A stretch of DNA of 63,358 nucleotides, counting the filler, from Folioceros fuciformis (Eukaryota): NCBI GenBank assembly GCA_049999805.1. It is 13 parts of 13 records of this genome, joined end to end, with 100 filler letters (N's around TTAATTAATTAA, not from the genome) between each part and the next. Parts side by side here need not be neighbours in the genome. Positions count along the whole stretch, not along the records: positions 19,509 to 27,244 come from JBNGIO010005666.1; 12 more parts are not named here. The stretch is one strand, 5' to 3'. The notes under the pieces are model-generated. The model ran no database searches and was not told the origin of the DNA. It saw only the letters and a list, made by a program, of their open reading frames with translations. Both the position numbers and the translations under genes were made by a program. This document shows positions 9,438-60,803 of this stretch, in pieces (within the stretch, counting starts at the first letter, position 1; the number at the start of each line of letters is the position of its first letter).

Positions 9438-9537
9438 NNNNNNNNNNNNNNNNNNNNNNNNNNNNNNNNNNNNNNNNNNNNTTAATTAATTAANNNNNNN
9501 NNNNNNNNNNNNNNNNNNNNNNNNNNNNNNNNNNNNN
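9438..9537. other. Artificial contig-joining linker (N44-TTAATTAATTAA-N44), first of 12
   Basis: The identical 100-nt linker, with stops in all six frames, occurs at 9438, 19409, 27245, 30785, 34268, 37939, 44855, 48732, 51832, 53337, 57138 and 59152. Plain 100-N gaps occur at 57714 and 60660. Confidence 0.97.
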
Positions 9538-19408: not shown

Positions 19409-19508
19409 NNNNNNNNNNNNNNNNNNNNNNNNNNNNNNNNNNNNNNNNNNNNTTAATTAATTAANNNNNNNNNNNNNNNNNNNNNNNNNNNNNNNNNNNN
19501 NNNNNNNN

Positions 19509-21404
19509 TCTCTGGAATACTTAGTTCTGCATTGTCATCTTCAACTGCAACAATTTCTAGAGGTGCATCCGTTTCTTCAACTGCAATGACAGCAGGAGTG
19601 TCTTTCTTTACCCCCTCTATGTCAGAAAGTTGAGAAGGTGCAATAGGCAATGGGGTAAATTGTCTAAGGCTGTTATGAGCGTTAGAATCCCTGGTGTGGT
19701 TTGTGTCAAACGACAGGGAATCTTGCAAGATGAAGGGTGAGGAAGTGGTGTCTCCCATTCCACTAGTAGGTTCGGCGACCTCATGAAAAACAACATCTCG
19801 GCTAAAAAGTATCTTCTTTGTGGTAGGATTGTATAATCGGTAACCTTTAACCTCATTAAAATAACCAAATATAAGGCATTTGATGCCATGTGGATCCCAC
19901 TTGGTCTAGTTGGCCTTCGGAACATGAGCGGAGTGGATCCAAAGATCCGTAGATGACTGATGTCAGGTTTTATGCCGGACCATGCTTCCTCGAGAGTCAT
20001 GTTGGGTACAGCCTTTATTGGAACTTTGTTGAACACATAGGTTGCTGTCATAATAGCCTCTCCCCAAAAACAAATTGGCAAGGCATTTTGATGGAGCATG
20101 CACTTAGCGCTTTCGACAAGGCTCCGTATCTTGTGCTCTGCCACTCCATTCTGTTGAGGCGTGTGCGAAATTGGGAGTTGCCGTTTGATGCCGTTCTCCT
20201 TGCAAAAACTCTGGAACGAAGAAGAGACATATTCTCCCCCATTGTCGCTATGAAGTGTCTGCAAGCGCTCATCACGTTCTTTCTCAACCAAAGCTTTCCA
20301 CTCCTTAAACATTTGGAACACCTGAGATTTCTCCTTCAAGAGGCAAGTCCATACGTTTCATGTGAAATTGTCGACAAAGATGAGAATACAGCGGGCGCCA
20401 TCCTCAATAGGGTTTTTCGTTGGCCCGCACACATCAGTATGCACTAGCTCTAGTGCCTTGTGCGCTCGATGCACAGTAATTTTAGGAAACTTGGTGCGAT
20501 GTAGCTTCCCCATCATACATCCTTGACATAATTGTGTCTCATTGATCTCCTTCAAATCCAATCCCATCACCATATGGTGGGTTTTCATCAACTTGAGCCT
20601 GTCAACTCCGATATGCCCCAAACACTAATGCCATAAATCAACAGATACGATACAATCTTGTGAACTAGTTATAGATGTACAAGTTTGCTTTCCCATAGAA
20701 GCACATAATTTGTACAGGTTTCCCACACGAACACCATGAGCAATGATTGAATTGTGAGGTGACTCAAGTTGGACAAGTTGAATGCGACAACCTTGAGAAT
20801 TGACAATGACCTCATGACCTGTATCTGTAATCTTAGCGACAGAAAGAAGATTTCTTGTGAGATTAGGCACATAATACACATCTTGAATTTGTGCAGAGGT
20901 TCTACTCTACAATTGGATTTGTAAAGAACCTTTTCCCTTGATGTCTTGTAACGTATTATCACCCAATGCCACAATATGACCCGTCGGGAGTTGTGCATAA
21001 CTAGTAAACCAAGGAAGGTTATAGCTGAAATGTTGAGTTGCGCCAGATTCAAGATAAAGACTCTCATCCTTCTTTGATGAGTTGGCATGATCTCCATTCA
21101 TAAAGCACATAAATGTCTGTTCATGTTGGATCTTATCACTAACTTGATTAGCTTAAGATTATTTCTCCTTCTTCAAGTCTGCCAACCTAGTTTTACATTC
21201 TTTTGCATGATGACCTGGCTTCCTGCAATAATAGTAGGATCCTTTCACCTTACTTTTTGTGCTTGTATCCTTCGTCTCGTCTGTAGATTTGGGTTGCATG
21301 CCCTTATGGCACGGTGCACTCTTCTTGGAGAAAAATAACGAGGCTTCGCCCCCCTATGCCTAGGAAGCATTATGAAGTTCCTCCTGCAAGAGGATTGCAA
21401 CCGC
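19509..21404 (-). mobile_element. Ty1/Copia fragment (end of gag, PR, IN), decayed
   Basis: AILLQEE (gag), YLESGATQH, HTDVCGP, HSDNGGEY, PQQNGVAEH. gag stops abruptly at 21404 where the next element begins. Confidence 0.92.
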
Positions 21405-22128
21405 TGTCGTGGCACCAGACTTGTTTTACAAGAATATATGTAGTAGCCTAGAGGTAGGCTGGCTATATATGTGATTTTGGCCATTAGGAAATAGCTATTA
21501 ATTAGCTTACCCCATATGAAGCTATTTAGCTAACATTATCAGGATAGGTTATTAGGCCATTTAGGTCATTTCTAGAACCATGGCTGCAAACCTGGCAGGT
21601 GGCTCGTGGGCTACATCATGCAGCCCGCTGCTGCAACGGCCAAAGGATCACGTAAGGTGGTGGCCTTATCACCCCGAGAGGGAGGTGCTAGCTCATGATG
21701 GCTGCCAAGACCTCAAGACTGGCGATGGCAAATGCAACAACCAATTGTCGAAGTCAGTGGAAAGGGAATGTTGCTGAATTTTTGATGGGAATGCAAGGTT
21801 TTGGTGTGCATGTGGCTCAGAACGATTGCAATGTGTGTGGGTGCTGCGGCAGGTCACGGATTTACCAACTCACGGCAGCCCGTGGAGGGCAACCCTTTTG
21901 ATTCGTATTTGCACCGAAGTGCGCCACAGCACATGTGAGCGCTATTGGCTTGTCTACTTTGACAACTGCTTTCAATTGCTGGAGCTCACGTGTGAGTGAG
22001 TTCCTCAGCCAGATTTTTTGAGTCCTCGCATGTGAGTGAGGTCTCTGCCAAGTTTGCTTAGTGTCTGGAGGTCATGTATCCAAGGGCGAGTGAGCTAGTG
22101 GAGGCGGCCGTGCAACTCTAGCAAGACA
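21405..22128 (+). repeat. Putative 5' LTR of the DNMT-bearing element
   Basis: TGTCGTGG...GCAAGACA imperfect inverted termini, TATATAT at about 21464. The right boundary is uncertain because there is no second LTR to compare. Confidence 0.45.
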
Positions 22129-22596
22129 GCATCCCCCACACGCCTTGATTGTGCCGCGGAAGCAGCTGCATTTCATGTGCATCAAGCTGCCCAAGTCTTC
22201 CAGCGTTCATAGCGCTCGCCCTAGTGGTTAGTTGCCGCCGATTTTTATACCAGAGTGTTTGCCTTGTTGAGATAAATCTATTGGTACCATTTTTTTTGTC
22301 TACTTCTGAGTGCAATCCAAGGACTAAATGCCTTAGAGAGGTTGGGCACTTAGGGTTCAGTTGGGGAAATTGGCTATTTGCAGCCATCACTTCCCTTGTT
22401 GCAGCATAGGTGCTAGGATAGTGATCTTCTAGGTCCCTTTTGCTTAATGAGGAGAAGGATCAGAGTTGCAACGTTGGTGTGTTCAGGAATTTTGCGTTTC
22501 ACATTGATTCTGTGGCTGGGGTTTTTTTCTTTCTCGGAGGCTGCCTTGCAGCACTTGCTTACCTTGCTGGTGGCTGATCTCTGGCGTGCTGTCTAC

Positions 22597-24392
22597 ATGG
22601 GCAATGCTCTCTGACAAGGGGGAGGTAGCCCACACTATCAACTGAGGACAAGGGACGTGCCAGCCAGGGTCTTTGCAAGGAGGAGGTGGCCAGCACAACG
22701 GCAACGGCTGTCTCTAGGAGGAGACCCAGTGGGAGCAAATCCTGGTGCTGAGCAGCTACAACCTACTGCAGACACAAGTTGGTCCCCTTTTGCTAACCGG
22801 GCCCCCGATCCAGTTGCACTAGATTTTGGTGACTTCAGGCAGGATAGTGGAGGCCAGGGTGCTGACCATTCATTGGTGATTTCAACAGCACAAGGAGGAT
22901 AGACTAAAGCTGACCTCTTGGAGGGATCTGATACCATGGAGTCAAGACCATCAAGTAGGCACGAAAAATTCTCAGGTAGGCTTGGGACTATGTCGTTGAG
23001 AGATTTCCGCCTACGTGTAAGTAAGGCAATCAACCGGGTGAAGTTCAAGCACAGTGCGTTGTACAATCACATGTACATGTTTGAACAACTATTTGCCTAC
23101 ATGGCTAATGAGGCATTGGATTTGTACGAGGCTCACCAAGCAGATTTGACTGCCACGGTGCATACCTTGAACCCTTTGCACCAGGGGGCGCTGCAGCTAG
23201 CCTATAATGCCAAGTTGTAGGCCGCCATTACAGCTCATCAACAGGCCATTGCTAATGGCATTGTTGCTGCCACCGTGCAGCCTCCTACAGTGGTGAGCCC
23301 CCTCACCCCAGCGGAGAGGACAACAGAAACACAGGGGATTGATGAGTTCATCCAGACTCCCAAGCATGCAAACCCCGTGGAGGAGTTTCTGAAGATTCTG
23401 GAAAAGGTCTTTCCCCTCAAAACTCCAGAGAAAATCGCTGAGTTCGCTACTTTGCGAGGAAGAAAGGGGAGACAGTCCAGATGTGCTTCCGTAGGCTGCA
23501 AAAGCTACGTGAGGGTACTGGCATGTTGACGGATTAGGAGGCAGCGGAGAAGTTCTTAGTTGCCCTGGAGGCTGATTCTCTTTTTCACTTCCAGCTTGTG
23601 TCCTCCTTGGTGGACAAATATGGTGATAACTACACCTTGGAGCAAGTGCATGAAGAGGAGGAGAAGAAGGAGATCGCCTACTCGGTGTTCTCCTCCAAGC
23701 ATGCCAAGTCCTTCCATCACTACCAGTCCATGTTCACCAACAAGGGGTCAACCACGCATGGGGGAGCTTCCTCAAGGGCAGGGCCAGCTAAGCCAGCCAA
23801 GGCAGGGGCAGCAGCTACTACAGCAGTAGCAGCACCTGTGGCAGCCTTATGCAATTACTGTGGCAGTCCAGAGCACTTGTCCACTGCATGCAAGTGTCCA
23901 TCGGAGGGTTTGTTCTGCACTCACTGCCAGAAGAACGGTCATGTTGTCACGGTCTGCTTCCAAAAACATCTGAAGAGACGGTATCAGAAGGCAAAGGCTG
24001 AGGCTAGTGGGACAGCAGTGGCACCTACAGCTGCTGCTGCTGGAACAACAGGGCCTTCACAAAGCAAACAGCAACGTGACAAGGCCAAGGCCAAGAATAT
24101 TGCCAATGCTGAGAAGGTCACAACTTTGGAGGCACAAATGGCAGCATTGGCCACGCAGGTGGCCAATCTCTCTAGTGCTGGAGGAGCCAAACCGGTTGCA
24201 GTAGTAGAACTTGTTGCAGTACCTGAAGGAGAGGACTACGGCCTGCCACATCAGGTCTTCATAGCGGATAAGGCACCAAGTGATAGCCAACAGGGATTTG
24301 TTGTGATGCCGACCTGCTGGGTGGGGCATGTGCTCCCAAATACCACGCTGGACATTACATTTGCAGCTACTAGACCTGTCACTAGGCAATGA
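22597..24392 (+). pseudogene. gag: Gypsy-like gag with two zinc knuckles
   Basis: ATG 22597 is in frame with ORFs 22657, 22918 and 23275. One frameshift at about 23460 leads into 23598-24392 with CNYCGSPEHLSTAC and CTHCQKNGHVVTVC. Confidence 0.8.
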
Positions 24393-24797
24393 CGGGCGAG
24401 GGCAGTGATGCCTCAATCCTATGTGCCATTGCCGCCAAGTTCTGCCATTCCGATTTGGGGGCAGAGCCATTCTTCATCCAGGTCCGAGCCAAGTGGATCA
24501 GCCCCTCAAAGGGGCCAGGGCATATCACATGCGGAAAAATTGTACTTGTTTCCACAGGCTGTCACTGCTGAACAGGTGGCTAAGAGGCTCACAGAGATCC
24601 CCCTCTTCACTCTCCAGGAGCTTGGACTTACACCCAACCGGCTGCAGCAAATGATGTAGACACTAGAAGTTGTGGCCACATGCAATGAGCTCGATCCTGT
24701 GGTTGCTCATGCCCGATTGTGGGAACTCCCACCAAACAGATCGTCACACTATGACAGCAGCCTTCAGCCCATGGAGTAGCCATGAATACATTCCGGC

Positions 24798-25277
24798 TTG
24801 CTGGAAGGAGTGTGCAATGTACAGGTGGCAGGCCAAGTTGGTGACAGCCCACGAGAAAAGCCCACCAACAGGCTCAACACCCGGGTTAGCAACGCTATTG
24901 TTGATAATCGAGCAGGGCACGTGATAGTGAATGGTTATGCACCCAGGGTAGTGCTGCTTGACACAAGTGCACAGCCAGTCATAATCGGCACAGTGCTGGC
25001 AGCCGGGCTGCATCTGAAGGGTGATGCTCTCCGCACATCACCCTGGAACATCAGGACTGCTTCCGGGGCAATTGAGCCAGTGTATGGGGAAACCATCCAA
25101 CCGGTGGATATTACCCTTAACACGGGCATGCCAGATGAGATGACCTTGTCATTGCCCTGTCTTATGACCACAGCCACCAACTATGATGTCTTGTTGGGTC
25201 AAGAATTTTTGTACCCACCAGGCATTGGCGTGGACAACTCGACGAAACAAGCCTTTTACAAGCCTTATTGGAGGTAG
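24798..25277 (+). pseudogene. Retroviral-type aspartic protease
   Basis: VLLDTSAQPVII (D-T-G/S-A), flap-like IRTASG, and C-terminal YDVLLGQEFL. Confidence 0.85.
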
Positions 25278-25616
25278 GGGGGGCTCCGTATGGCGCATCT
25301 GCCACTGGACCTTCATGGTAAAACAGTTGCTGATGTGGCCTCACTTGTAGCCTGCCAAATGGTTTGTGACATTCAGTCTTGCAACCTGGGCGAGCTATTG
25401 AGGGACACTACCCATGTAGAACGGCAGCTGGAGTCTGCAGCTGATGAGGATTCACTTGGCAGTGGTAGCACTTTGTCTCAAGCCATGGCTCATCCAGACT
25501 ACCCTGCTGAGGTGGCTACACGTTTGCATAATGCCAAGGCTCAATTGCAACGTGTCCAGAGCCTTGTGGCTACAGGGTTGGTGAATCCCACATAGGACAA
25601 GCTGCTAAACTGCACT

Positions 25617-25925
25617 GTGATCACGTGGGCACCCTCTCAGCCTGAACTAATGGTGGTAGAGCTGTTTGGGGGTATCTGCACTGGGCTAGAGGCTTTGCTG
25701 CTGACGGGGCTCACTATCCGGCGCTATGTCTATTGTGACAAGGACCCAATAGCCAAGAACATTGTAGCCTTCAGACTGCTTGGGCTGCAACAGCACTTTC
25801 CACAGCAACTACCCCAAGAGGCCACTCAGAGCATTTTTACGGCCTGGCCACAGGATGTGCAGTACATCCAACAGGCCCACATCCATGCTTTGGGACCTGT
25901 GGACATGGTCATCGCTGGCTGGGAA
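25617..25925 (+). pseudogene. DNMT3-like cytosine-5 DNA methyltransferase, N-terminal half of catalytic domain (motifs I-IV), truncated by insertion
   Basis: VVELFGGICTGLEALLLTGLTIRRYVYCD parallels DNMT3A [53 protein letters not shown] parallels [26 protein letters not shown]. DNMT3A sequence recalled from memory and aligned by eye. Confidence 0.88.
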
Positions 25926-26134
25926 AGTTAGAATTGCTAACGCAGAAGCAGATGCATTGAAAATTATCTATTAGCAAATTAATTAGGTGGATACAAAGGT
26001 AGCCCTTAAGTAGTAGTTTACGAAGGGGTGTGCCCTTTGACTAACCTGCAAGTTAACTAACTACACTTATAACTATACCTAGTTAGGCTAACCAACGTAA
26101 TACAGAACCACGTGGTCTGCCTTATATTCCAACT
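25926..26134 (-). repeat. 3' LTR (209 bp) with AG...CT termini
   Basis: Inverted termini AGTTAGAAT / ATTCCAACT, bounded by the PPT and the DNMT break. Confidence 0.75.
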
Positions 26135-27244
26135 CTCCCTCTCAGACACGTGCTGATTGCTGTTAGAAGAGAGCTCCTAAGTACAAATGGAGATCACTGC
26201 TGTTGACGCCAAGCTTTAAACATCTTCAAAATGGCTATCACCTGAGTCTGTAGTCTATAGGATCTCACAAAGTAGAACACCACTCCAGTGACCAGAAGAG
26301 AAGCATGCCAATTGCTTCATATCATCAACCTAAGTGACGGAATATTTGTGTAGTGAAAGGTCCTACCAAATAAGTGATTTGTCTAGTGTCATGTATCTAC
26401 TACAATCCACCAAACCAAGCCCTTCTCTGTGAAAACAGTGTTTGAACTTAGGCAAGGACTTGGTCAGGACATCTGCTGTGTTGTCGTCGGTAGGTATATA
26501 TTGAACCTTGACGATACTTCTCTTAGCAGCATCCCTAATATAATGATGTTGAATTTCTATATGCTTGGTGCGTGCATGGAAGACGAGTTAGCAACCAAAG
26601 AAAATGCTGACATGTTGTCACAATGCAAGACTGTTGGCCCTTCTTGCTTCATACCCAAGTCTTCACAAAGCTTCCTTTCCCACTCAGCCTCCTTAGTGGC
26701 TTCGGTGAGTGCCTTGTACTCAGACTTTGTGGAAGACAGGAGATGGCTGCTTGTTTTCTACATGACTAGTTAACTACAGAGGAGTTGGCCAGAGAACAAT
26801 AAGCTGATATACTTTTTCGGGTGTTTTCATCGGAAGCCCAATTTGCATCTACATAACAAGTTAGCCGCAGATGCTTCTTCCCGCTTGGCATATAGCAAAG
26901 GCCATAATTAGGTGTACCCTTAAGGTACCTCATAATTCGCTTGATACCAACCTAATGATCCTTTCCTGGGTTTCCAATGAATTGGGCAATAGCATTGACT
27001 ATGTTGGATATATCGGGTCTTGTCTGACTACTCATGAACATGAGGGTGCCAACTGCCATGTGATAAGGAATATCCTCCATCTCCTTCTTGTCTTCTTCAG
27101 ATTGGGGACATGAGGCAGATGAGAGCTTGACTCCACACGCACCTGGGGTGGTTGACGCCCTAGCATTCTCCATGTTGAAGCGTTTGAGCATACCGGCTAC
27201 ATATCTACCTTGGTGAAGATAGATAGCACTTGTGGTATCCCTAT
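25926..27244 (-). mobile_element. Ty1/Copia 3' part (RT end, RH, PPT, 3' LTR) inserted into the DNMT
   Basis: PYHMAVGTLMF..TRPDI and RNase H remnants. PPT CTGAGAGGGAG (minus strand, 26135-26145) followed by a 209-bp LTR at 25926-26134. Confidence 0.9.
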
Positions 27245-27344
27245 NNNNNNNNNNNNNNNNNNNNNNNNNNNNNNNNNNNNNNNNNNNNTTAATTAATTAA
27301 NNNNNNNNNNNNNNNNNNNNNNNNNNNNNNNNNNNNNNNNNNNN

Positions 27345-57344: not shown

Positions 57345-58266
57345 CTACTCACTTTTATTATTTCCCTCTATCATTGCTGTTTCCGTTTTGATTATCTCCC
57401 CATTGTCAAGAGGACTATTAGCACTAGGGTACGACCTCCAGCTTGGACTTCCCTCACATATCGCTGACTTGGGGTCTATATTATCTGTTGCGGCATACCC
57501 GGACTCCTCCGACTTTTCCTCTATTTCGACGTTGTCGAATTCAGGATATTCTGCAGATGCTGCCTCAGCACATTTATTTATTGGGATCCCGTCCTTATGG
57601 AGAGTGGGAGCTATCGGCTGCTGCCCTATGATTTCAGCTGCATTTTCGATAATTTTATTATTCTTCAGCAATATATATGGTGCTATTATTACAGCTTAGT
57701 ATTTACTTACTAGNNNNNNNNNNNNNNNNNNNNNNNNNNNNNNNNNNNNNNNNNNNNNNNNNNNNNNNNNNNNNNNNNNNNNNNNNNNNNNNNNNNNNNN
57801 NNNNNNNNNNNNNAGCAATATATATGGTGCTATTATTACAGCTTAGTATTTACTTACTAGTCTCTATGGTATTTTTGATTTCCTTTACTACCACTTCCGT
57901 GTTCCCTATGTGGGTTTGGATCACCAATAGATCCTCCTCTTCTACTTCTTCGACATCACATGTGTTAGCAGCCAAGGCACATACATGCAAGAAATCAGCA
58001 TCAAAATTAGGGTCATCTTCACCCTCTTCTATATGTCGCCCAGGACCAGATGTTGGTATTTTCTCGTATCCCAGGATGCGAGCATGCGCCGCTTGGCGGT
58101 TTAAGGCACCTTTCTCCCTCCTTGCCGCTAATTTCTTCCTTCGGCTTGTCTTCCTTTTTCTTTTCCCGTCCCTCGATGCACCGGGGGGGGCATGGGCACT
58201 TTCACTTTCCATCATGTGATGCATCGCACGACGGGGTCCTGCCACCATTATCAACATGAAAGGCAA
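57345..58266 (-). pseudogene. Decayed ORF (basic NLS-like then acidic low-complexity), probably retroelement-derived
   Basis: ORFs 57850-58266 (KRKRKTSRRKK, acidic tract) and 57345-57671 become near-contiguous once the duplicated overlap around the N-gap is merged; no domain recognised. Confidence 0.3.
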
Positions 58267-59262: not shown

Positions 59263-59847
59263 ATGGCGCGACCCCAGAGCTCGGCCCCCACCCATGTCAC
59301 ATGGCTGCGACTCCTGCCGGCGCTAGCGCTGCTGCTCGCATGCAGCTGCGTGGGCGCACTGCTGCAGGCGCCGGGAGCTCTTGCCGCGACCTACGAGATA
59401 GTGGACATCGCCAGCATTGTTGGCAAAGGGGAAATCCAGATCAAGCTGGAGTACCCCGCGGCATACCTGAACGGCTTCGGCAGCACGGTGTCGTACACGA
59501 CCAGTGCCACCGACACCAGCACCGTGTGGCAGCTTGAGCAGTACATCATCGGCGGCGTGCTGGACAATTCCGTGTACATCAAGCACCCAGGCACCGGCAA
59601 GTATATCACGTACGTGGTCGGGGTGCCTTTCATCACCGACGAGGGCTTCAACCTCCAGATCGGGCCCAACCCCTTGTTCGGCCGCTGGTGGTTCTACTCC
59701 ATCGACAAGACCTCGCGCTTCAAGGTTTGCAGCGCCAACAACATCTTCTACTGCCTAACCTTCACTGCCTCCTCTTCCAAGGACGGCGCCACCGTCTTCA
59801 CCGTCGCCCCAGAGGCCACGTTCAATCCACTCATAGAGATGGCTTAA
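59263..59847 (+). CDS. Putative secreted beta-trefoil (ricin-B/RICIN-like lectin) protein
   Basis: Hydrophobic signal-like N-terminus ending ALA, strongly GC3-biased codons, trefoil-type motifs (TVWQL..VYIKHPGTGKYI, RWWF..FKV, YCLT..SSKDGATV), and an acceptor-like TTGCAG just before the ATG. The fold call is by eye. Confidence 0.7.
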   Translation: MARPQSSAPTHVTWLRLLPALALLLACSCVGALLQAPGALAATYEIVDIASIVGKGEIQIKLEYPAAYLNGFGSTVSYTTSATDTSTVWQLEQYIIGGVLDNSVYIKHPGTGKYITYVVGVPFITDEGFNLQIGPNPLFGRWWFYSIDKTSRFKVCSANNIFYCLTFTASSSKDGATVFTVAPEATFNPLIEMA

Positions 59848-60659: not shown

Positions 60660-60803
60660 NNNNNNNNNNNNNNNNNNNNNNNNNNNNNNNNNNNNNNNNN
60701 NNNNNNNNNNNNNNNNNNNNNNNNNNNNNNNNNNNNNNNNNNNNNNNNNNNNNNNNNNNGGGTACTATTCATTAGCACCTATAAATTTCTAGAATTTATA
60801 ATT

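Follow-up and report, generated by a model that had tools for sequence, protein, structure and literature searches.

Positions 21405–25925 of a 63,358-base stretch of DNA from Folioceros fuciformis (the whole stretch is hereafter called the window) very probably represent the decayed 5′ portion of a Ty3/Gypsy-type long terminal repeat (LTR) retrotransposon that bears a DNMT3-like cytosine methyltransferase. The remnant reads on the plus strand through gag, a retropepsin-type aspartic protease (PR) and a linker into the methylase (DNMT), of which it keeps the first third. There it is cut: a Copia element has inserted into the methylase domain and ends the remnant exactly at 25925/25926. The account given here joins this identity to a nested history and to a mechanism drawn from relatives, and in our judgement it is highly likely to be the best overall explanation of the locus.

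One reading frame joins gag, protease and methylase

The original prediction, made from the sequence alone, described a single frame that passes through two CCHC knuckles, a protease, a linker and a series of methyltransferase motifs. We found this arrangement, with every motif that had been named in its expected place. The frame spans 23538–25928 and is broken by in-frame stops at 24390, 24657, 24777, 24783, 25275 and 25593, with a further stop at 23535; together with one at 23218 these make eight in all.

Gag begins at the ATG at 22936, in a different frame from the knuckles. Its N-terminal part runs to about 23450, near which there is a one-base frameshift, and the stops at 23218 and 23535 both fall within gag. 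Both sides of the frameshift match P0006, the nearest full relative (1283 amino acids (aa)). By tblastn, 22951–23481 (frame 1) matches P0006 residues 42–219 (E = 7e-6) and 23451–23969 (frame 3) matches residues 210–385 (E = 2e-12); BLASTP of gag against the same protein gives E = 2e-7. The two knuckles, CNYCGSPEHLSTAC (23850–23891) and CTHCQKNGHVVTVC (23916–23957), both have the canonical C-X2-C-X4-H-X4-C spacing. When pieces of the window were searched against Pfam, zf-CCHC reached E = 0.004, under the Pfam cut-off, and the Pfam gag families gave no match. After the knuckles comes a coiled-coil-like stretch rich in Lys and Ala (24081–24170; bZIP_2, E = 0.0017, below cut-off). P0006 is similar at the same place, a likeness that suggests conservation of the stretch within this gag.

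The protease carries the signatures LLDTSAQ (24954–24974) and YDVLLGQEFL (25182–25211), and matches PF13975 with E = 3.7e-6 (27.9 bits, just short of the cut-off at 28.2) and PF13650 with E = 1.4e-4. Its active-site triplet is DTS, where relatives have DTG (LDTGAQ in the aligned P0006).

Protease, linker and methylase align to P0006 in one unbroken BLASTP alignment (38% identity over 362 aa, E = 4e-57). Thirteen of the 34 proteins compared align over the whole PR–linker–DNMT block, among them proteins of Closterium sp. NIES-54 and Marchantia polymorpha; 14 align over the DNMT part only (some with a separate PR match), and seven do not match. These comparisons bear on the possibility that a host DNMT3 gene or pseudogene fragment lies beside an unrelated gag–protease remnant, making the fusion a chance event at this one place. 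Juxtaposed fragments are abundant in DNA rich in transposable elements (TEs), and the methylase is present here as a first third that Pfam does not call. Nevertheless, we consider an accidental fusion extremely improbable: the three parts share one frame and align as a block to those 13 proteins, the same junctions are found on a contig from another species label, and 106 of the 150 best family representatives (classified below) join DNMT to retroelement domains, the remaining 44 being too short to show a host architecture.

A second concern is that gag–PR and DNMT were mis-joined through repeats within the contig, which is short, unplaced and made of nested repeats throughout. The chance of such a chimera appears negligible. 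An independent X3 contig (record 19; 7751 nt, other species label, high depth) spans 22293–25925 with 172 differing letters and three gaps, and extends about 4.1 kb beyond 25925, into the catalytic Cys motif. Because this contig spans the same junctions and continues into motif IV, a mis-join is effectively ruled out. (The X3 set is labelled RNA by guess only.) Several X4 contigs are, like this one, collinear with the window over the same interval at about 95% identity, and the same order is found in proteins and loci of unrelated sources. The original prediction was also right that the element is no concatenation artefact: the whole of 21405–25925 lies inside one contig (19509–27244).

A DNMT3-like methylase

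The methylase fragment contains motifs I (ELFGGICTG, 25659–25685), II (RRYVYCD, 25719–25739) and III (QDV, 25851–25859) in canonical order, and the motif I–III region aligns to DNMT3A residues (phmmer) and to the family. Motif IV starts at 25893–25925, where the copy ends one residue short of the catalytic Cys. The X3 and X4 contigs read on beyond 25925 as C-Q-G-F-S-R-A-G-R-G, which is the catalytic-Cys part of motif IV in relatives. Motifs VI (ENV), VIII (RxR), IX and X lie outside the truncated copy; in relatives they are collinear and non-permuted, unlike those of DRM.

A search of 5.8 billion proteins with the 111-aa methylase piece, in which 346 candidates were scored, gave 47–48% identity to P0002, P0003 and P0004 (E = 4.6e-21 to 5.1e-18). 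Among the three intact matches to the piece, one carries PF00145 and a gag-type protease. The best PDB matches of the piece are DNMT3A chains (E = 0.005), and P0006 has 27 matches in PDB at E ≤ 0.01, every one of them DNMT3A, DNMT3B or DNMT3C, in alignments that span motifs I–VIII and IX–X. We also searched PDB with a family profile built from seven members. Its top 29 matches are again DNMT3A, DNMT3B and DNMT3C (5.8e-16 to 2.8e-12), followed by M.HaeIII and M.HhaI (about 1e-6), tobacco DRM (2.6e-6), DRM2 (0.02) and DNMT2 (0.13). The lead of DNMT3 over M.HaeIII, M.HhaI and DRM is about ten orders of magnitude, and DNMT1 is absent from the matches at E ≤ 1. The expectation of a DNMT3-like enzyme is thus borne out; judged by PDB profile search, the methylase is closer to DNMT3 than to DNMT1, DRM, DNMT2 or the bacterial enzymes.

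Domain orders and extent of the family

The class had been thought rare, which it is not: a profile search of 1.84 billion representatives returned 10,600 matches at E ≤ 0.001, 2,230 at 1e-10 and 573 at 1e-30, these last counted as clusters at 50% identity. Searching with the DNMT region of P0006 found 22 proteins at E ≤ 0.001, the Closterium sp. NIES-54 and Marchantia polymorpha proteins among them. We classified the best 150 family representatives by BLAST against domain references. Thirty-three are of type A (PR–DNMT or DNMT–RT, the order of the window element; RT, reverse transcriptase) and 73 are of type B (RT–RH–DNMT–IN, mostly with a PHD finger; RH, RNase H; IN, integrase); a further 43 are short DNMT-only fragments (211–740 aa), and one has PR only. 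None is more than 36% identical to the window element over PR–DNMT.

The original prediction gave the intact order as gag–PR–DNMT–RT–RH–IN, perhaps with a chromodomain at the end. The order holds, and in P0160, L001, P0015, P0022 and P0030 DNMT is followed in the same frame by RT–RH–IN. The chromodomain does not: none was seen, and a PHD finger follows IN instead. Pfam finds CCHC, PR, DNA_methylase, RVT_1, RNase H, Integrase_H2C2 and rve in the single 2188-aa protein P0160, and locus L001 has CCHC, PR, DNMT, RT, RH, IN and PHD in one frame that is broken once, by TAG. The Closterium sp. NIES-54 protein carries CCHC, PR, DNMT and the start of RT, and Marchantia polymorpha Mp_8g15430 carries PR and DNMT. 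From a metagenome scan that yielded 60 loci we examined the 17 longest; PR–DNMT–RT is present in 16, a PHD finger follows IN in nine, and direct repeats flank the coding part in three (L031, 342 bp; L006, 307 bp; L035, 169 bp). Because relatives carry PR–DNMT–RT–RH–IN in one frame, we assign the window element to the Ty3/Gypsy type. On these domain matches, the predicted intact type-A order is gag with CCHC knuckles, PR, DNMT3-like methylase, RT, RNase H and IN, with a PHD finger in one complete Pfam-checked locus.

Both domain orders carry the PHD finger after the integrase (8035–8193 in L001, 3236–3280 in P0014). Chromoviruses have a chromodomain at this post-integrase position, and a PHD finger placed there suggests chromatin-guided integration.

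On a quick family tree (25 rows, all kept) the 111-aa piece falls among the type-B methylases, with a Shimodaira–Hasegawa-like approximate likelihood ratio test (SH-aLRT) value of 99. A type-A placement is not rejected by the approximately unbiased (AU) test (p = 0.59), and the constrained tree has the higher likelihood.

Type-B proteins have an extra conserved domain at the C-terminus (P0014 residues 3330–3524; 245 aa in P0010) with a likeness to D12-class N6-adenine methyltransferases. Both of its matches, PF02086 (E = 0.18) and a PDB entry named 'Methyltransferase' (E = 0.11), are sub-threshold. The domain may be a second methylase, as in EpiLTRs, and we offer this as a lead only.

Motif IV, selection and a putative leaky stop in relatives

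We could read motif IV in 138 of 174 family proteins (survey range P0002–P0303). Eighty have ECQ, 52 PCQ, four SCQ, one CCQ and one LCQ, and the window lineage, read from 25920–25925 together with the X3 and X4 continuation, has ECQ. This mixture of states invites the explanation that the element is real but that its methylase has changed or lost its chemistry and does not methylate DNA any more, serving for example in RNA methylation or in a purely structural or DNA-binding role. RNA methylation was indeed raised by the authors of PMC5890265, in the part of that paper on an enzyme borne by a long interspersed nuclear element (LINE), and the Klebsormidium nitens enzyme discussed below was inactive in yeast, in an assay that its authors call inconclusive. 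Such a change of chemistry seems to us quite unlikely. The catalytic Cys and the ENV and RxR motifs are conserved across the family, and the family tree shows at least five switches between the PC and EC states, without loss of the other motifs.

The pattern of selection also speaks against it. Among L001, L002 and L003 (three pairs) the ratio of nonsynonymous to synonymous substitution rates (dN/dS) is 0.10–0.13 for DNMT and 0.08–0.12 for PR, compared with 0.25–0.37 for the linker and 0.24–0.53 for the tail; dS is saturated in two of the three pairs, and the pair with dS 0.28 gives a DNMT dN/dS of 0.119. By this measure, purifying selection in relatives is as strong on the methylase as on the protease.

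Gammaretroviral gag–pol is made by readthrough of a stop. Relatives of the window element have a stop between DNMT and RT at the homologous place in all eight loci examined (Table 1), and CAA or CAG follows it. UAG-CAR-YYA is matched in full in L001, L002 and L004, and the other five loci have CAA CCC; the eight loci amount to about three lineages and are not eight independent cases. Five protein clusters end at this same DNMT/RT place. CAR-YYA after UAG is the readthrough signal of tobacco mosaic virus (TMV), as given in the part of PMC2754532 that deals with it.

Nested insertion and decay

The window consists of distinct contigs strung together with N44-TTAATTAATTAA-N44 linkers, which contain a stop in all six frames. 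Linkers lie at 9438–9537, 19409–19508, 27245–27344 and 10 further places, and features on either side of a linker are not true neighbours. There are also two plain N100 gaps (57714–57813 and 60660–60759).

Within its own contig the DNMT element is flanked by Copia sequence on the minus strand. On the left, tblastn with P0055, P0061 and P0083 places residues ~191–717 of Copia element 1 at 21305 down to 19780, with residues 1–190 missing, and Pfam recognizes rve and gag_pre-integrs. The left end of the DNMT element at the TG at 21405 is supported because an X3 contig (record 17) begins to match at 21403, after unlike sequence. On the right, residues ~1041–1354 of the Copia element 2 polyprotein run from 27242 down to ~26405 (tblastn), and about 480 bp of 3′ untranslated region (UTR) and LTR follow, ending at 25926; the contig stops within this element. 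Word depth at 25926 rises from ~76 to ~1480, about twenty-fold (run X1), and in three X2 contigs the sequence upstream of 25926 is unlike the window. The best matches of the Copia open reading frame (ORF) of the window are at most 39% identical and come from fern and angiosperm proteins.

These borders suggest a history in four steps. The DNMT element, whose 5′ end is marked by the TG, would have landed in the gag of Copia element 1; it would then have been methylated and have decayed through transition mutations; Copia element 2 would later have split it within methylase motif IV; and the remainder would now lie beyond the contig end.

That the copy is dead was part of the original prediction, and eight stops, one frameshift, DTS in place of DTG and the cut by a Copia LTR all agree. 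The ratio of observed to expected CpG in the element is 0.36, with TpG and CpA in excess, and the neighbouring Copia pieces and other contigs have 0.38–0.58. At 132 places an A or T in the window stands against G or C in the X3 contigs, and at 28 places it is the other way round. Among the differences listed, the stop sites at 24390 and 25593 are sense codons in every other covering contig, and at 23450 most covering contigs show a one-base length difference. This pattern is as would be expected from deamination of methylated cytosines in a silenced copy.

The abrupt right end could be read in another way, as the natural end of a non-autonomous or domesticated gag–PR–DNMT unit, whether co-opted by the host or a parasite of full elements. 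Many family proteins do stop after DNMT (P0006, P0016–P0019, P0023–P0025), and no RT is seen here. Against this, loci for which DNA is available go on in frame into RT–RH–IN directly past the stop, the break falls just where a high-copy Copia LTR ends, and the X3 contig that crosses it continues for about 4.1 kb. The eight stops and the frameshift argue, moreover, against a maintained host gene. A unit of this kind is very unlikely, and we take the window copy to be a truncated part of a longer retrotransposon.

Table 1. Positions of the DNMT element, its Copia neighbours and the conserved stops of related loci
Feature	Position	Strand	Basis
5′ non-coding part, presumed 5′ LTR and leader, begins TG	21405–22935	+	X3 contig match start
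Gag with two CCHC knuckles and coiled-coil-like stretch	22936–24170	+	tblastn against P0006; zf-CCHC
Retropepsin-type aspartic protease	24921–25277	+	PF13975, PF13650, alignment to P0006
Protease–methylase linker, ~113 aa, stops 25275 and 25593 at its ends	25278–25616	+	collinear with P0006
N-terminal third of DNMT3-like C5 cytosine methyltransferase	25617–25925	+	identity to P0002, P0003, P0004
Copia element 1 (gag C-terminal part, protease, integrase), gag interrupted by DNMT element	19509–21404	-	tblastn, Pfam
Copia element 2, RNase H end, then 3′ UTR and 3′ LTR	25926–27244	-	tblastn, word depth
Conserved stop, L001	5083–5085		
Conserved stop, L002	4661		
Conserved stop, L004	4509		
Conserved stop, L006	12119		
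Conserved stop, L005	4430		
Conserved stop, L010	12119		
Conserved stop, L011	3631		
Conserved stop, L008	3208		

Neither gag-like nor Copia-like coding sequence was found in the 5′ part (21405–22935). The leader contains a tandem duplication with units of ~40 nt (21985–22043 and 21995–22085), and 89 nt are absent here in the other species label. Elsewhere in the window, an open frame on the plus strand (59263–59844) begins like a signal peptide. The protein-atlas clusters closest to it are ricin-B-type lectin families (scores 0.91–0.93, a weak lead), and the frame may belong to the small number of genes in the window that do not come from TEs.

Weighing the evidence

Several observations weigh against the reading set out above or against parts of it. 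The 63-kb window holds no Gypsy RT, RNase H or IN, and class membership rests on relatives that are at most 38% identical. LTR features in the contig are confined to the 5′ end (the TG at 21405), with no second LTR in the window, and neither an LTR end nor a primer-binding site was found in 21405–22935 by an inverted-repeat search or with a 12-nt terminal motif, the matches of which are at chance level (49 found, 43.7 expected). The residue before the catalytic Cys in the window lineage is Glu, where Pro is canonical. The original prediction had put forward a PF00145 search as a test of the methylase, and its outcome is formally negative: Pfam DNA_methylase has no match in 25596–25928, even at E ≤ 1. 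This miss is uninformative because the PF00145 matches of relatives mostly begin at motif IV, and the part from there on is cut off here; in P0006, for example, the match covers profile positions 49–113. The relatives themselves score 26 bits (P0006), 46.1 bits (P0160) and 51.1 bits (L001 ORF1) against a cut-off of 22.

Two further points concern the mechanism. The type-A proteins P0015, P0160, P0030 and P0164 have no stop between DNMT and RT, and because of such relatives the leaky-stop scheme is not universal; that the lineage of the window element itself has the stop is a real possibility, though somewhat short of an even chance. The K. nitens Gypsy DNMT gave no methylation in yeast, a result that its authors call inconclusive in the relevant part of PMC5890265.

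Proposed mechanism and significance

By analogy with relatives, the methylase would be translated within a Gag–PR–DNMT precursor. In several relatives this precursor would be the main product, with RT–RH–IN reached only by readthrough of the conserved, supposedly leaky stop. Precursor and RNA would be packaged together, and the protease of the element would free the methylase. The free enzyme might then methylate new cDNA, or the DNA around a new insertion, and the copy would thus already bear its mark on entering the genome. We put forward self-methylation of cDNA or of the insertion site as a tentative function, one that we think has appreciably less than an even chance of being right. Methylation of cDNA has been argued from the active SymbioDIRS enzyme (PMC5890265, in the section on that enzyme).

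A more ambitious joint proposal is unlikely as it stands, but would matter if it held. The window element would belong to an undescribed type-A branch with the methylase on the Gag side of a TMV-like leaky stop and with a Glu-Cys motif. This branch would be spread through streptophyte algae, liverworts and the present TE-rich host, and its near-identical, high-depth copy in the sister species label might still be transcribed. The methylase would be produced at the level of Gag rather than of Pol and would be taken up into particles. If all this were true, a de novo methyltransferase would be delivered with every particle, and elements could write part of the TE methylation of the host.

Dead and truncated as it is, the window copy is of value only as a pointer to the family. 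Cytosine methylation is the main tool by which hosts silence transposons, and the usual picture is reversed by a transposon equipped with a de novo methyltransferase of its own. The placement of the methylase upstream of the leaky stop in several members would make it as abundant as Gag. With hundreds of clusters at 50% identity and two domain orders, the streptophyte-type family appears more widespread than the 2018 report suggests, and these findings bear on what a retroelement gains by methylating DNA.

Comparison with known systems

Elements of this kind have been known since 2018 from one charophyte and from dinoflagellates, and the window adds a further host. The original prediction was right that the class has precedent: the streptophyte KnitGypsy-Dnmt3 of K. 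nitens is already published (PMC5890265, passages on this element). The kind is cited as 'streptophytes (Gypsy-DNMT3)' in bioRxiv 10.64898/2026.05.21.726589, and one sentence of PMC12344493 mentions such elements. Our literature search turned up no further report naming such elements, and no description of the PR–DNMT–RT order, of a leaky stop or of a Glu-Cys motif in such elements. The main text of PMC5890265, where it deals with KnitGypsy-Dnmt3, does not state the domain order, and provides no basis for assigning that element to type A or type B or for calling type A new.

KnitGypsy-Dnmt3 resembles the window family in having an intronless, non-rearranged DNMT3-type methylase inside a Gypsy polyprotein in a green-lineage host; in the window family, too, an intronless DNMT3-like domain lies in frame within a Gypsy-type polyprotein. 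Purifying selection is another likeness, with Ka/Ks < 0.2 given for it in those passages of PMC5890265 and 0.10–0.13 in the relatives of the window element. The repeats differ, being DIRS-like in the same account, whereas three relatives here have plain flanking direct repeats. The window element is at most 38% identical over PR–DNMT to the proteins compared, a set with no sequence named as K. nitens.

The catalytic domains of mammalian DNMT3A, DNMT3B and DNMT3C (2qrv, 6brr, 6kda, 8tci) are the best and only strong PDB matches of the family, and motifs I to VIII and IX–X are collinear with theirs, including the ...AHRxRxxW.N... stretch. Sequence identity to them is low (20–34 bits in phmmer for single sequences). 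Unlike the mammalian enzymes, the family domain is without the PWWP/ADD region, is embedded in a retroelement polyprotein and, in the window lineage and in 80 of 138 family members, has Glu for Pro before the catalytic Cys.

TMV offers a parallel for the stop: in L001, L002 and L004 an in-frame UAG in the context UAG-CAR-YYA divides the upstream product from RT–RH–IN (viral signal from the corresponding part of PMC2754532). In the elements readthrough is predicted from sequence context, and the window copy ends before that point.

SymbioDIRS-Dnmt3 of Symbiodinium is likewise a DNMT3 borne by a retroelement. According to the part of PMC5890265 devoted to it, it is an independent capture and, alone among such enzymes, has been shown to methylate CG de novo; for this last reason we take it as the working model for the module. 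Its carrier differs, being a DIRS element with a tyrosine recombinase, whereas the window family is of the Gypsy LTR type with a DDE integrase.

EpiLTRs of Cymbomonas and Euglena are, like the window family, LTR retrotransposons that combine a cytosine methylase with chromatin-reader modules (bioRxiv 10.64898/2026.05.21.726589). There the DNMT is sister to DNMT4, lies at the 3′ end of pol and is accompanied by a DAM adenine methylase and a chromodomain. In the window family, by contrast, the methylase is DNMT3-like and positioned after PR, and a PHD finger is present in relatives.

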